64,000 nucleotides of DNA, taken from the NCBI GenBank assembly GCA_041697335.1, contig JBGUGD010000039.1, forward strand, positions 160,001-224,000, in the 5' to 3' direction. This DNA comes from Vampirovibrionaceae bacterium NZW_1234 (GTDB lineage Bacteria > Cyanobacteriota > Vampirovibrionia > Vampirovibrionales > JAGQHJ01). A program made the position numbers and the translations under genes. A model generated the notes under the pieces. It saw only the letters and a program-made list of their open reading frames with translations, did not search any database and had not been told where the DNA came from. Below, piece after piece: positions 15,757 to 47,731 of the stretch (the stretch's first letter is position 1; the number at the start of each line of letters is the position of its first letter).

Positions 15757-16863
15757 ATGAGTGCAACCAAAGCCGTTTTAGACAAACTGTCCACCGCCGC
15801 CCTGGTCTTTGAACAAAAGGAACCGGGACAATGGGTAGTGATCGACTGGAACCCCGCCCTGGAAACCCTGCGAGAAGGCCCAGGGAAAGACCTGAAAGGC
15901 CGGGAAGCCAAGAGCTTTATTGAGGTTGAAGCCAAGGCCAACAACCCCTTGCCCCTGTTTCAAGAGAAAAGCGTCAAGCCCATGACCCCCTTGAACATCC
16001 ATACGGGCTTGTTTGAAACTGCCTCGCAGCAACAGGTGCGGGTCAAAATCAAGTACGACTGGGTGGATGCCGACACCCTGGTAATGTGGATCGAGCTGTT
16101 CTCCGAAGATATGGCCCTGACCCAGGCCCATGCCGACTTTGTCAGCACCGTCAGCCACGAGTTTCGTACCCCGCTGACCAGCATTAAAGGCTTTGCCGAT
16201 ACGCTCTTGCGCTACGGCTCGAACCTGGATCCCGAACAACAAAAACGCTTTATCAACATTATTAAGCACCAGGCCGACCGTTTGACCCGCCTGGTTGAAA
16301 ATATGTTGACCGTCTCCAAGCTGGGTGCCCAGAAAACCCAGTTTATCTATCGGCCTATTCCGCTGAAAAAGACCATCGAGCGGATTGTGCAAAGTGTGGA
16401 AGCCAAAATCCCGGACCCGCGGGAGTTCAAGATCAAGATTTCCGAAGACCTGGTGGAAGTCTGGGCCGACCCGGACAAATTGGAGCAGGTGCTGTTAAAC
16501 CTCATCGACAACGCCGCCAAGTACTCCTATGCCGAATCCACCGTCACCATCCAGGCCGATTTGCTGGAAGACGACAACGACAAGATTGAAATCAACATCA
16601 GTGACCAGGGTGTGGGGATTCCCAAGGAACACTTGCCCAATATCTTCAACAAGTTCTCCCGGATTGATAACCCCTTGACCCGGGAAGTGGAAGGCACAGG
16701 CCTAGGTCTGTACATCACCAAGTCGCTGACCAACGCCATGGGCGGCCAGATTTCCGTGACCAGCGAAGAGAAAAAAGGCACCACTTTTACCGTTATTCTG
16801 CCGGTCGCCACCCCTGAACGACAAGCCGCAGCCCGACTCCAGGGAGAAGAGGAGACGGCCTAA
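15757..16863 (+). CDS. cytoplasmic sensor histidine kinase
   Basis: VSHEFRTPLT, NLIDNAAKY, DQGVGI, GTGLGL; no TM segment. Confidence 0.95.
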   Translation: MSATKAVLDKLSTAALVFEQKEPGQWVVIDWNPALETLREGPGKDLKGREAKSFIEVEAKANNPLPLFQEKSVKPMTPLNIHTGLFETASQQQVRVKIKYDWVDADTLVMWIELFSEDMALTQAHADFVSTVSHEFRTPLTSIKGFADTLLRYGSNLDPEQQKRFINIIKHQADRLTRLVENMLTVSKLGAQKTQFIYRPIPLKKTIERIVQSVEAKIPDPREFKIKISEDLVEVWADPDKLEQVLLNLIDNAAKYSYAESTVTIQADLLEDDNDKIEINISDQGVGIPKEHLPNIFNKFSRIDNPLTREVEGTGLGLYITKSLTNAMGGQISVTSEEKKGTTFTVILPVATPERQAAARLQGEEETA

Positions 16864-18173
16864 TGGCATTTCAACTGGTCCAGCTCATCGGCACCCCCCC
16901 GCCCGAACTGGTCGAGGTGTTACGACAGGAGCTTAACCAGGAATCCCTGGTGCAATCCATTGAAACCCCCACCATTATGGAAGCCCAAAGCATCCTGCCC
17001 AAAGTGCTGCCGGATTTGGTGGTGTTTTTTATTGATTCGCTGGAAGAAAACGTCAGCCAGTTTTGTCAGGAAATCCGGGCCCAGATTACCGAACACCGGC
17101 CTATTATCGTTATCTCCTCATCCCAAGCCAACAAGGACCAACGCATCGAGTTCTTCCTGAGTGGGGCCGACGATTACCTGACCACCGACATTGAACCGGA
17201 AGAATTTGCGGTGCGTCTCTTGGTGCACCTGCGCCGCAACGTGGAGCTTCTCTCCAACAGCCAGACCCGCCTGCCCGGTCTGCCCCTGTTTGCACGCCTC
17301 ATCCAGCGTAAGATCAACCTGGATTTACCGTGGGCCTTGATTCTGATTGAATTGAACAATTTTGGCGTCTACACCGAAGTGTATGGACGTATTCCCAGCG
17401 AACAGATTTTGAAAACCCTGGCTGCATTGCTTAAACAGCTCATTCTTCCTCCCGATATCGTTGGCCAGATTGACACCGAAAACTTCCTGGTACTGACCAC
17501 CCCGGAAAAAGCCGAGCGCATCGCCGAGTTGATGTGCAAGCAGTTTGATGACGTCGTCATCAACTTTTATTCGGAAAAAGACCAGAAACGGGGCTATATT
17601 ATTTCCGTGGTCAACGAGTCCATCAGCCAGCGCGTGCCCTTTGTCTGCCTGAGCATGGGCATTGTGACCAGCGAGAACAAGCTGTTCCGAAACTACATGT
17701 CCGTCTTCAGCAGCTCGGTAGAGATGAAAAACATTGCCAAGGGCAACTACGGCAGCAACTGGGTCAGCGAGCGCCTGAAACTAACGGGCAGCATAACCGC
17801 CGATGCCGACCGTCTGAAGAAGATTTTGATTGTAGAAGAAGATGCCGCCCTGGCCTTTTTGCTGAAAAGCACCCTGGAAATGCAAGGCTACCACGTCGAA
17901 ACCTGCATCAATCACAGCGAAGCCAAATCGTCGCTGGAAAAAGAGCGCGCCGATATGCTGCTCTTCGACCCGGCGATTCCCGGGCTCTTCAAGGGCTGGG
18001 ACCTGTGCCAATGGATTCGCCAGACCGAAGGCCTGAAGCTGATGCACATCATCTGTATGTCCAGTATCCACGACCGGGAGCAGGCGTTGAACGCCGGGGC
18101 CGACCTCTACTTGCCCAAACCCTTTGAGCTGTCCTCCCTGTTTACCTGGGTCGATCGCTTCCTGAAACGTTAA
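16863..18173 (+). CDS. REC-like / degenerate GGDEF / REC response regulator
   Basis: GADDYL REC end; GGDEF-fold segment with GQIDTENF at the active-site position; C-terminal REC (KILIVEED...LLFD...LPKPF). Confidence 0.85.
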   Translation: MAFQLVQLIGTPPPELVEVLRQELNQESLVQSIETPTIMEAQSILPKVLPDLVVFFIDSLEENVSQFCQEIRAQITEHRPIIVISSSQANKDQRIEFFLSGADDYLTTDIEPEEFAVRLLVHLRRNVELLSNSQTRLPGLPLFARLIQRKINLDLPWALILIELNNFGVYTEVYGRIPSEQILKTLAALLKQLILPPDIVGQIDTENFLVLTTPEKAERIAELMCKQFDDVVINFYSEKDQKRGYIISVVNESISQRVPFVCLSMGIVTSENKLFRNYMSVFSSSVEMKNIAKGNYGSNWVSERLKLTGSITADADRLKKILIVEEDAALAFLLKSTLEMQGYHVETCINHSEAKSSLEKERADMLLFDPAIPGLFKGWDLCQWIRQTEGLKLMHIICMSSIHDREQALNAGADLYLPKPFELSSLFTWVDRFLKR

Positions 18174-18364: not shown

Positions 18365-19258
18365 ATGGAACCTATGAATGTGAACAAAGGCTATGAGATT
18401 AGCCTGAAACGTGTGTTGGATTTACCCTCGCTGCCTGACGTCGTCAACAGTATTATTGAGATTGTCGGCGATGACGCTACACCGGCATCGGAAATTGCCA
18501 AGCTCATCAGCTATGACCCCGGCTTGACCTCCAAATGCCTTCGCATGGTTAATTCTGCGGCCTACGGCTTTCAGCGGCAAATCAGCTCGGTGCAGCATGC
18601 CATTATGATCCTGGGCTTCAATACCGTGCGGGGGGTGGTTCTGAGCGCCAGCATCTACAAAATGTTCTCGGATAAAAAAGGGCAAAAAGGCATCGATCCC
18701 ATCCAGTTCTGGCGCCATTCCTTCGGTACCGCCATTGCCAGCCGGGTGCTGGCCAATAAATTCCGCATCCGTTATGCCGAAGACGCCTTCAGTGCGGGCA
18801 TGCTTCACGACATCGGCAAGATGATCCTGGACTATTACTTTGCCATGGAGTATCAGGACGTGCTGACCACGGCCCGGTCCAACCGAATCCCCTTCAGCGG
18901 ACGCCTTTTCGTGGCCCTGGAACACAAGATTCTTAAAACCGATCACACGCATCTGGGCTACCAGATTGCCCAGCGCTGGAAACTGCCGGTGACCTTCAAC
19001 GAAGTCATTCGCTGGCATCATCATCCTGAGCGGGCAACCGATGCGCCGGAGCTGGTGTATGTGGTGGCCCTGGCCAATGCCTTTAGCCATATTCTTCAGC
19101 ACAACCACGGGGTTTTCTCTGATGCCTACCTGACCCCGGCTCTGAGAGAGTATTTTCAATACGACCCTGAAGACCCGGAGCCCTTTATTGCACTGTTTAA
19201 AGAAGTGGCCGCCGAAATGGAATCCCTGGACGATCTGTTGATCTCCCTCAAGCACTAA
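18365..19258 (+). CDS. HDOD domain protein
   Basis: LPSLP, DPGLT..LRMVNSA.YG, FWRHS, AGMLHDIGK, RWKLP, HHHP. Confidence 0.93.
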   Translation: MEPMNVNKGYEISLKRVLDLPSLPDVVNSIIEIVGDDATPASEIAKLISYDPGLTSKCLRMVNSAAYGFQRQISSVQHAIMILGFNTVRGVVLSASIYKMFSDKKGQKGIDPIQFWRHSFGTAIASRVLANKFRIRYAEDAFSAGMLHDIGKMILDYYFAMEYQDVLTTARSNRIPFSGRLFVALEHKILKTDHTHLGYQIAQRWKLPVTFNEVIRWHHHPERATDAPELVYVVALANAFSHILQHNHGVFSDAYLTPALREYFQYDPEDPEPFIALFKEVAAEMESLDDLLISLKH

Positions 19259-19469
19259 CCCCCCTTTTCCCTCGATTTTCCAAACCAGACGTCACATGCA
19301 CATGCCCCTCCTGTCCGGCTTGACTTGATGGGAGCGCCAAAGGACATCCACTATGAACAACTATGAACGCGAGGTCCGAGGCTTAAATGCTTTCAGGATA
19401 AGGGATTAATATTTTCTTTCTTTTTGTCCGGGCAATTCTAAAGATTTTTCCGTTTTTTTAATAATACAG

Positions 19470-19915
19470 GCGAGCGTTAAACAAAACGCCCTTGGGAGAG
19501 AGAAAATCGCATAGTAAAAGGAGAAATCAATCCCTTAAACGGTATTGTGCACTGTTTGTTGGTAATAAGGAGGATCAGAGAGCAACAATTCTTTTGATGT
19601 GTTTTAGGAACGAGTCAACGTTAAAGGATTCAAAGGAGGTTACTAGCCGTTTAAATCAAGCTTTTTGTACAAACAAGATGTTTTATTCAAATGGTTAAGT
19701 AGAAAAACAAGGAGGTCTTCATCGGGAGAAAACCAATACCGTGTTTATGATGAACTTTTAGGACGTACACTTTAGGATAAGTAAGGAGGCAAAGCCTAGA
19801 TCAGATAGCGTTATTAGTTTCGTGAATTGATCTTGAATTTTAGACGATTGCCACGATGGCAAACGCAATATGCGTCAATGACACCCGACTTCAACTGGAG
19901 TCGGGTGTTCGTCAT
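19470..19915 (+). ncRNA. candidate CsrB/RsmZ-like GGA-rich small RNA
   Basis: 12 GGA vs 1 TCC in 19495-19787; four AAGGAGG without start codons; ends in a hairpin; boundaries inferred. Confidence 0.55.
19881..19908. terminator. hairpin between the GGA-rich RNA and the end of fliI (probably bidirectional)
   Basis: ACACCCGACT...AGTCGGGTGT stem flanked by AATGAC/GTCATT. Confidence 0.75.
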
Positions 19916-19935
19916 TAAAGGAATAACCCTGCTTT

Positions 19936-21261
19936 TTAACCAGGCACCTGCTGCGCCAGTTGCGCCAAGCCCTTGACCGTCTCATCAAAGCCCACCGCTT
20001 CATCAACCTGCTGCTTCAAAAAGGCGTCAATTTTGTCTTTAAGCTGAATGGACAGATCGATCTTCGGGTTGGTGCCCCGGACATAGGCACCAATATTGAT
20101 AATGTCCTCGGATTTCCGGTAGGTGGCCATCAGATCTCGGATTTTTCCGGCCGCAGCACGGTGCTCAGGAGCCGTAATGCCAATCATTAATCGGCTGATA
20201 GATCCGAGGACATCCACCGCCGGGAAATGGTTTTGATGGGCCAAATCCCGGGACAGAATGACGTGGCCATCCAAAATCCCGCGAACCGTATCGGAAATGG
20301 GTTCGTTGAAGTCGTCCCCTTCAACCAAGACCGTATATAAGCCCGTAATTGAGCCTTCATCGCTGGTCCCGGCCCGCTCAAGAAGTTTCGGCATAAAGGC
20401 AAAAACACTGGGAGTGTAGCCTCGGCTGGTCGGCGGTTCGCCCACGGACAAACCCACTTCCCGTAAGGCCATCGCCACCCGAGTGAGCGAATCGAGCATC
20501 AGAATGACATTTTTACCTTGGGCCCGGTAGTATTCGGCAATCGTTGTGGCCGTCAAGGCGGCCTTAATTTTCATCAGGGCGGGTTGTTCAGACGTAGAGA
20601 CAACCACCACGGCACGCTTCATCCCTTCGGTTCCCAGGGCCTCTTCAATAAACTCCTTGACCTCCCGGCCCCGCTCACCAACCAGGGCAATGACGGTCAG
20701 ATCCGCCTCGGTATTGCGGGTAATCATCCCAAGCAACGTCGATTTTCCGACCCCGGAGCCTGCAAATATCCCAACCCGCTGGCCCTTTCCGACTGTTGTA
20801 AACCCGTCCAGACTCCGGACCCCCAAGGGCAAGGGCTCGGATATTGAGCGACGGTGCAGAGGCGATGGCGCTTCGGTGGCCACCGGCAAGGCATCATCAC
20901 AGCACAGCTCTCCTCGGTTGTCGATGGGACGCCCCAGGCCATCCAGAACACGCCCCAAGAGGTTTTGACCCACCGGCACTTCCAGGGCCCGATTGGTGTT
21001 CACCACCCGATTACCGGGAGCCAGGGCAATCATCTCGCCCAAGGGCATCATCATCAGCCGGCCGGCTTTGAATCCCACCACCTCGGCTGCCAAGGGAGGC
21101 ACGCCCGGCTGGTCGGAATGAATGTAGCACAGATCGCCCATCTTGGCCCGAGGGCCTTTGGTTTCGATGACCAAGCCCACAATCTGCTCGACATAACCCA
21201 CTTCCGGGTAGGGGGATTGCTGCTTAATCGCCTGCTCAAATGTCGATAAATCCAGCGTCAC
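19936..21261 (-). CDS. fliI: flagellar export ATPase
   Basis: FAGSGVGKS, GERGREV, DSLTRVA; operon position. Confidence 0.96.
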   Translation of the reverse strand: MTLDLSTFEQAIKQQSPYPEVGYVEQIVGLVIETKGPRAKMGDLCYIHSDQPGVPPLAAEVVGFKAGRLMMMPLGEMIALAPGNRVVNTNRALEVPVGQNLLGRVLDGLGRPIDNRGELCCDDALPVATEAPSPLHRRSISEPLPLGVRSLDGFTTVGKGQRVGIFAGSGVGKSTLLGMITRNTEADLTVIALVGERGREVKEFIEEALGTEGMKRAVVVVSTSEQPALMKIKAALTATTIAEYYRAQGKNVILMLDSLTRVAMALREVGLSVGEPPTSRGYTPSVFAFMPKLLERAGTSDEGSITGLYTVLVEGDDFNEPISDTVRGILDGHVILSRDLAHQNHFPAVDVLGSISRLMIGITAPEHRAAAGKIRDLMATYRKSEDIINIGAYVRGTNPKIDLSIQLKDKIDAFLKQQVDEAVGFDETVKGLAQLAQQVPG

Positions 21262-47222: not shown

Positions 47223-47422
47223 TTGTATCGTGTGTGTCGTGATGAACGGGTTTGCACTCGGCTTCATCTGATTTTTCCACTCGTCCGGTCTTTTACCCCA
47301 AGATCCGGGCATCGTCAGGAGGGTTGGCCCCCTGCCGAAGGATGCCAGCGCATCCGAGTGGCTTAGTAGGAATATCTGCGTAATACAACGATGTATCGGA
47401 AACGGTACATCGTTCTTTTTTT
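47223..47422 (+). ncRNA. structured orphan ncRNA candidate
   Basis: TATAAT at 47211; nested stems; AACGATGTATCG-GAAA-CGGTACATCGTT terminator plus T-run. Confidence 0.55.
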
Positions 47423-47608
47423 GCCCATAACAACGGCCTGCTTAGACCGGTCATCGGTGACGCCCATATCGGTCACATAGAACCTGGATAACACAGTCTT
47501 AAAGCTTCCTTAAAAAGCCGCTATATTCTGTAACATGCGTTCCAAGACACCTATTTTTTGTTTTTATACCTGTAGGACGTGGGTCAAGTAAGGAGGATAA
47601 CTCATTTT

Positions 47609-47639
47609 AGAAGGGCGTGTCAGGATGACACGCCCTTCT
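47609..47639. terminator. perfect 14-bp hairpin with a GGA loop
   Basis: AGAAGGGCGTGTCA-GGA-TGACACGCCCTTCT. Confidence 0.7.
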
Positions 47640-47731
47640 GCCCTATTAAGACCACCAAAAACAGGCCAAAGAAAAACCCGCTCTCAAGCGGGTACAGGTG
47701 TGTCCAGTGGAGATAAATCGAAATGCTATGG

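Follow-up and report, generated by a model that had tools for sequence, protein, structure and literature searches.

The stretch analysed here, called the window throughout, comprises 64,000 nt of DNA from an uncultured, flagellated, non-photosynthetic cyanobacterial relative (Vampirovibrionales); the closest-matching sequencing runs were hot-spring and mat metagenomes. An intergenic gap of 677 nt (19259-19935) separates a plus-strand gene encoding an HDOD-domain protein from fliI, which converges on it as the last gene of the series flgB-flgC-fliE-fliF-fliG-fliH-fliI. In this series fliI and fliH were named by Pfam, while flgB, flgC, fliE, fliF and fliG were named from their translations. The GC content of the gap was 41%, compared with 50% for the genome. 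The features to which the text refers are as follows.

18365-19258, plus strand: upstream gene, HDOD-domain protein of 297 aa
19252-19331, no strand assigned: unconstrained spacer, replaced by 66 different letters in the relative from sequencing run X12
19332-19844, plus strand: constrained block, with 28 substitutions and two 1-nt insertions over 513 nt in the X12 relative
19350-19368, no strand assigned: direct repeat with a 10-bp period, unique in the genome as a pair
19353-19409, plus strand: 18-aa ORF starting with ATG, SD-like AAAGGA 8 nt upstream, codon score like that of intergenic DNA
19399-19537, plus strand: 21-nt inverted repeat (19399-19419 and 19517-19537), 81% matching
19492-19698: 68-aa ORF starting with TTG, codon score below 99.9% of coding fragments
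19495-19789, plus strand: motif core with 12 GGA (10 of them AGGA) and four perfect AAGGAGG
19590-19637, plus strand: predicted imperfect hairpin, GGA 19607 in an internal loop
19597-19698: 33-aa ORF starting with ATG, codon score non-coding, ATG 23 nt from the nearest SD
19640-19702, plus strand: long imperfect hairpin found by folding, with four G-U pairs, between two AAGGAGG
19848-19912, no strand assigned: three end hairpins (19848-19862, 19863-19875 and 19878-19912)
19936-21261, minus strand: convergent fliI

Gene context and coding potential

No terminator was detected 3' of the HDOD gene, so that read-through into the downstream element is possible. Within the gap, neither a sigma-70-like promoter nor a U-tailed terminator was found, and no sigma-28-like site lay directly ahead of the element. 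Such a site does lie ahead of the HDOD gene; it was rejected as a conserved signal, since only 3 of 30 loci gave a loose match. The direct repeat at 19350-19368 could be an activator site. Just upstream of the HDOD gene, 15757-18173 encodes a histidine kinase followed by a receiver-GGDEF-receiver protein, a pair that might regulate the gap element. An identity with 6S RNA was dismissed, the single 6S locus of the genome being situated on contig C20.

The earlier note had drawn on the flagellar neighbourhood of the element and on its place where fliJ usually sits. The gene context was not conserved in relatives, fliJ was found on a different contig and unrelated genes followed fliI in the relatives; the argument from the fliJ position therefore carries no weight.

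The gap had also been described as free of credible ORFs. Reading frames do exist, among them the 68-aa TTG and 18-aa ATG ORFs, and the description holds in that both score as non-coding. The 68-aa ORF matched nothing in Pfam, four genomes of the same family contained no relative of it, and a 1-nt insertion broke it in the X12 relative. No ORF was found downstream before the end hairpins. A locus for a small protein, in which the 18-aa or the 33-aa ORF would be translated and the rest would serve as leader or trailer, possibly of a dual-function RNA, is highly improbable. It would fit the start of the constrained block just before the SD of the 18-aa ORF, as well as the fact that neither of the listed X12 indels falls within the 18-aa or 33-aa ORF. 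However, the codon scores of these ORFs were -0.22 and -0.29, whereas coding DNA scored +0.14, and 98.4% and 99.8% of coding fragments, respectively, scored higher than the two ORFs. The ATG of the 33-aa ORF lies 23 nt from the nearest SD, and translation of either would leave the other AAGGAGG copies unexplained.

Motif excess, constraint and spread

The strand bias reported for GGA proved exact, with 12 GGA and 1 TCC at 19495-19787, and four further GGA were confirmed at 19331, 19342, 19396 and 19403. Four perfect AAGGAGG were likewise present at 19567, 19633, 19709 and 19783 (spacing of 66, 76 and 74 nt), none of them with an ATG, GTG or TTG 3-11 nt downstream. The density of GGA in the core was 3.9 per 100 nt (12 GGA, 10 AGGA and 1 TCC in 306 nt), the spacings included 9, 10, 14, 14 and 19 nt, and G followed GGA in 8 of 13 cases in the element. 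In 2000 dinucleotide shuffles of the gap, the count of plain GGA was only weakly exceptional (18 vs. a mean of 12.8, p = 0.03), whereas no shuffle reached the observed counts of AGGA (13 vs. 4.1 expected) or AAGGAGG (4 vs. 0.09 expected). The enriched word is AGGA/AAGGAGG, not plain GGA.

The genome-wide scan of intergenic DNA proposed earlier was made after crude masking of ORFs (3271 of at least 80 aa), which left 870 gaps of at least 200 nt, or 1740 intergenic strand-gaps. The gap ranked first of these 1740 for raw AGGA, with 10 per 300 nt and 7 for the next. After correction for composition it ranked first for AGGA and second for AGGAG, while for plain GGA, the word originally proposed, it came only eighth. 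The AGGA excess alone (Poisson p of 2.7e-4) fails correction for 1740 tests; four AAGGAGG in 300 nt are significant genome-wide, at about 3e-4 to 5e-3, assuming independent copies. A module of the form TAGGA-N-AGGA-N-AAGGAGG occurs in two copies (19605-19639 and 19759-19789) and nowhere else in the genome and, because it is present twice in the gap, the AAGGAGG copies may not be independent.

Run X12 contained a diverged relative with identical gene order. On its 805-nt contig, the 3' end of the HDOD gene differed at 28 of 215 bases, the next 80 bases were replaced by 66 others, and 19332-19844 differed at 28 of 513 bases, substitutions being counted over the block as a whole; the two 1-nt insertions fell after 19588 and after 19755. 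The block was less diverged than the coding end (Fisher p = 0.001) and than six mostly coding X12 pieces, one of which includes 65 non-coding bases (122/1157; Fisher p = 0.0006). A seventh piece (19898-20243, 57 differences) was excluded because the hairpin and the diverged end of fliI both fall within it. Assuming that 70-90% of coding changes are synonymous, the element changed about 6-9 times less than synonymous sites (0.057 vs. 0.36-0.50). This estimate of constraint derives from a single relative at a depth of about 4, with a coding or mostly coding comparison set and with cover listed up to 19844 and again from 19898. The low divergence, together with the frameshift in the sole long ORF, points to a constrained non-coding element.

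The relatives searched for homologues belonged to other genera, with HDOD proteins at most 63% identical and the organism's own genus not among them, which means that an RNA evolving quickly might have escaped notice. DNA search, synteny and motif patterns revealed no homologue in 48 further genomes of the order, even though csrA is almost universal among them. The sole DNA match in 40 relatives was 35 nt long and lay in an unrelated intergenic region, and the 48 order genomes gave chance matches of 16-37 nt only (E<=1). No AGGAGG cluster followed fliI in 29 relatives' loci from 40 genomes (four had <300 nt) or the HDOD gene in 29 loci from 38 matching relatives (two had about <=300 nt), with some sequences of this synteny check covered in part only. 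HDOD scans of metagenome and genome contigs yielded one and two loci, all distant. On sequence grounds, the gap is a constrained, lineage-restricted non-coding element.

Candidates from the pattern searches were rejected. A triple AAGGAGG occurred in 5 of 300 genomes of the class, three times in coding DNA and twice in tandem leaders; the internal module was matched in 4 of 48 order genomes, compared with 5 control matches, and the sole locus read was coding. Paired AAGGAGG in four same-family genomes was at about the control level (one of four loci read), and 115 viral stretches carrying the module had no similarity to the gap. A 15-nt word in common with 63-nt repeats of another family was present in 8 of 300 genomes, against 4 in the control, and is not a class motif. 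Those repeats (L065:1501-1700 and L066, genomes G070 and G050) are intergenic tandem units, about 63 nt long, in which a small hairpin comes after AAGGAGG. They lie immediately before start codons, at various loci across three genomes that belong to a single genus of that family, and look like a small dispersed repeat.

The window contains a second candidate, a short gene-free element at 47540-47640 (plus strand), with 4 GGA, which has TAGGACGT and AAGTAAGGAGG in common with the last unit of the gap element and ends in a 14-bp hairpin with the CsrB-type word CAGGATG at its loop. Its own gap ranked second in the composition-corrected AGGA scan, exposure of its GGAs exceeded that of the null (0.48 vs. 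0.26, p = 0.035), and among flank matches to unit 19783 the 47.5-kb site scored second best (23 vs. a mean of 12.8, sd 3.4, n = 87). The element was without Rfam match or homologue by pattern, the pattern being matched in 4 of 48 order genomes at coding or gene-edge positions only. At 47290-47423 (plus strand), downstream of a ferredoxin-like gene, is a structured stretch with a strong terminal hairpin and U-tract, possibly another small RNA. Elsewhere in the genome (L186; G000:C30, about 75050-75600, plus strand), an array of five to six units of 94-104 nt, each with AAAGGAGG and an ANGGA-type word, lies between a plus-strand gene and a convergent gene, with a purine tract and then a U-tailed hairpin behind it. 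The GGAs of this C30 array were predicted to be mostly paired, it had no Rfam match, and its resemblance to the gap, the SD word aside, did not exceed background.

Such arrays bear on the view that the gap holds a DNA-level or near-neutral feature, either a decayed tandem triplication of 66-76 nt or a protein-binding array, with no RNA function, a view we consider unlikely. AAGGAGG would then be a shared remnant, and the low divergence would reflect local rate variation or promoter-type constraint. The units have TTTTAGGA and GATG in common beyond the SD word, other AAGGAGG tandem arrays exist (units of about 100 nt in C30 and of 63 nt in two genomes of another family), the element is without homologue, promoter or terminator, and duplication would make the copies non-independent, weakening the chance estimate. 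Yet Tandem Repeats Finder showed no array in the gap, where only purine words survive and the spacers are diverged; divergence over the 513 nt is about half that of coding DNA, next to 80 nt that were replaced, and the whole region also departs from shuffles in its folding (z of -3.07).

Folding and strand

The region 19470-19920 folded better than shuffled sequences on both strands (z of -3.07 on plus and -2.63 on minus), and much of this signal comes from the end hairpins, whose segment had z of -5.2 on plus and -3.7 on minus and was devoid of a U-tract. The last of these hairpins (19878-19912), described earlier as closing the region, is real; a U-tract is absent from both strands, and the terminator search did not call it. 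The end hairpins are likely a 3' end common to the fliI transcript and the element. In the segment of the hairpin at 19640-19702, z was -2.99 on plus and +0.48 on minus, and its four G-U pairs, with significance on the plus strand only, provide a mild argument for a plus-strand RNA. The plus orientation first proposed for the candidate is thus mildly favoured by the G-U hairpin and by the end segment. The inverted repeat (19399-19419 and 19517-19537) can pair only in an RNA that starts upstream of 19399.

The opposite strand offers an alternative that is improbable: a minus-strand RNA, which would either prolong the fliI operon at its 3' end or be a gene of its own, with four CCUCCUU anti-SD words that would pair with mRNA ribosome-binding sites. 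The C-rich sRNAs of Firmicutes of the RNAIII/RsaE/RoxS type pair with ribosome-binding sites of mRNAs. The minus strand continues directly from fliI into an end hairpin without U-tract, the whole-region z on this strand (-2.63) is also low, the sole terminator-like call in the gap (19734-19714; 1 found vs. 1.1 expected) is on this strand, and one anti-SD word was predicted to be open (0.70-0.96). The remaining three, in contrast, were about half paired (0.28-0.65), the G-U pairs of the central hairpin exist on the plus strand only, as its z values indicate, and the end segment favours plus as well.

Folding was also to reveal whether the GGAs sit in loops, as in CsrB, and here the expectation failed: 1 of 12 was in a hairpin loop, compared with 9 of 22 in CsrB. 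Against a null in which the motifs were held fixed and the remaining sequence was shuffled, the unpaired probability of GGA in the element, from single-sequence prediction, was 0.52 vs. 0.46 ± 0.08 (p = 0.21), whereas for the E. coli CsrB control it was 0.81 vs. 0.52 for GG, a value reached by 0 of 100 shuffles. When the same display test was applied to local flagellin leaders, one failed and the other passed. Since a local flagellin leader fails too, the result lowers membership of the CsrB family more than it lowers function. The AAGGAGG sites were predicted to be mostly unpaired in 1-2 of 4 cases.

CsrA, ribosomes and known regulatory RNAs

The search for csrA and fliW, suggested earlier as a check, found both, fliW followed by an adjoining csrA (G000:C5:229831-230073; PF02599, E of 4.6e-24) on contig C5; of 49 genomes in the order, 47 contained csrA and 47 contained fliW. 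CsrA of this genome has residue N55, the FliW contact in B. subtilis (bioRxiv 10.1101/2020.07.02.184341), and N55 with a C-terminal extension occurred in all 13 CsrA proteins read (of 47). The BarA sensor domain PF09984 was not found in this genome, which is 94.75% complete, while the E. coli control was positive. The strand-gaps ranked 2 and 5 for raw AGGA were those upstream of two of three clustered flagellin genes, where CsrA would be expected to act, and 55 flagellin leaders taken from 31 loci had a mean of 3.4 GGA vs. 1.5 TCC per 120 nt, SD included, compared with a mean of 2.1 GGA for all long genes of this genome. The presence of fliW-csrA and of GGA-rich flagellin leaders makes it very likely that CsrA reads GGA words in this organism as elsewhere.

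The three flagellin genes lie in tandem on the minus strand (G000:C26, 158262-162260; loci L073-L075). The first leader has a dense run of CAGGA/AAGGA and the second a hairpin with GGA in its loop, features that are likely CsrA sites. A start-less AAGGAGG 75-90 nt before the real SD was seen in four flagellin leaders of one related genus (L141, L150, L154 and L157), and also in a leader of a same-family genome (L165:1501-1590).

Our best reading is that the element works like CsrB and is no member of the CsrB/Rsm family. From the observed motif excess, non-coding character, constraint in one relative, csrA and fliW, and GGA-rich flagellin leaders, we infer an RNA that would be transcribed from the plus strand, bind CsrA and affect flagellin. 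That it titrates CsrA through SD mimics is a tentative proposal, held at somewhat less than even confidence. The RNA would be non-coding and roughly 450-580 nt long, possibly a 3' extension of the HDOD message, with long hairpins spacing out clusters of AGGA/AAGGAGG that would mimic the ribosome-binding sites normally occupied by CsrA. Inside each cluster, GGA pairs separated by 9-19 nt would be bound by CsrA dimers; the resulting drop in free CsrA would relieve leaders, flagellin ones among them, and so provide a second input in addition to FliW. A fuller version, possible though doubtful, is that of a CsrA-sequestering RNA of independent origin with SD mimics on hairpin spacers, which would form a set with 47540-47640 and the C30 array and act alongside FliW on an N55 CsrA.

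AAGGAGG is also a perfect 7-nt complement of this genome's 16S tail, with which the four copies pair at -11 to -13 kcal/mol; the weaker TAGGA words, also repeated, reach -4 to -5 kcal/mol. Because of this pairing and the SD-like context, ribosome or anti-SD models fit as well. A plus-strand RNA that binds 30S instead of CsrA, as a ribosome decoy or a stabiliser of the STAB-SD type, seems to us quite unlikely. The 7-nt complement is the strongest signal of all, four start-less SD sites are spaced by more than one ribosome footprint, and related flagellin leaders have a start-less AAGGAGG at 75-90 nt before their SD. A precedent is the STAB-SD of cry3A mRNA, a start-less SD that acts by blocking RNase J (PMC4113751). 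The element resembles it in that a perfect SD, able to pair with the 16S tail, is not followed by a start codon. However, the STAB-SD is one 5' leader site needing RNase J, while the element has four sites and no downstream ORF to protect, and RNase J was not found in the genome at 94.75% completeness (PF17770, 0 matches; TIGR00649, a 26-bit partial match vs. a cut-off of 400), although the same family searches detected it in a cyanobacterial genome. The small number of SD sites predicted to be mostly unpaired (1-2 of 4) also argues against 30S binding, and the repeated weak TAGGA words are better explained by a GGA-binding protein.

In the literature, FliW and Csr sRNA systems were reported to be anti-correlated across genomes (PMC4682653), and according to a 2020 review it 'remains to be determined' whether any species combines FliW and sRNAs in the control of CsrA (PMC7652899). 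Among the matches listed, drawn from mostly non-subscription literature without supplements, there was no report of a Csr sRNA in Vampirovibrionia; nor, among the matches listed, was there one of a dedicated sponge sRNA in a species with FliW. One paper mentioned both CsrA and Melainabacteria, its title pointing to another topic, and Vampirovibrio was named in none of the first 30 of 148 and 15 of 1026 matches of two further queries. If CsrA titration is true, a dedicated sponge RNA beside fliW-csrA(N55) would place both control modes in one cell, and would be an RNA decoy in a group thought to control CsrA via protein. It would also suggest that sponge RNAs outside Gammaproteobacteria have been missed because they are unlike CsrB. 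The idea is testable without culturing the organism, with an 80-aa protein, one RNA and a reporter.

The description as CsrB-like is supported by the presence of csrA, the AGGA words on one strand and the non-coding character, and fails for loop display, Rfam match and BarA. Like CsrB/CsrC/RsmB and RsmX/Y/Z of Gammaproteobacteria, the element is intergenic, in the size range of 300-450 nt, with A-GGA words on one strand; it also shares GGA spacings of 10-20 nt, a strong 3' hairpin and csrA in the genome. Unlike in CsrB, its GGAs are not in short hairpin loops, long hairpins serve as spacers, and the words are AAGGAGG/TAGGA instead of CAGGAUG. The density of GGA is lower (3.9 per 100 nt in the core vs. 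6.0 in CsrB), and G follows GGA more often (8 of 13 vs. 4 of 22). There is further no U-tail and no BarA domain, CsrA is of the FliW type, and no Csr/Rsm family of Rfam was matched in the window at gathering score, only SNORA77 by chance (E of 2).

A second comparison is with the flaA leader of C. jejuni, which titrates FliW-controlled CsrA (PMC4894983). Titration of a FliW-controlled CsrA by an RNA in a flagellar context, as proposed here, would resemble it. The flaA RNA, however, is an mRNA that encodes a protein and carries ANGGA in two stem-loops within a leader of 45 nt (PMC4894983), while the element has 12 sites over 300 nt and no downstream ORF. As the flaA leader already titrates a CsrA of the FliW type, what would be new is a dedicated RNA built on a different architecture.
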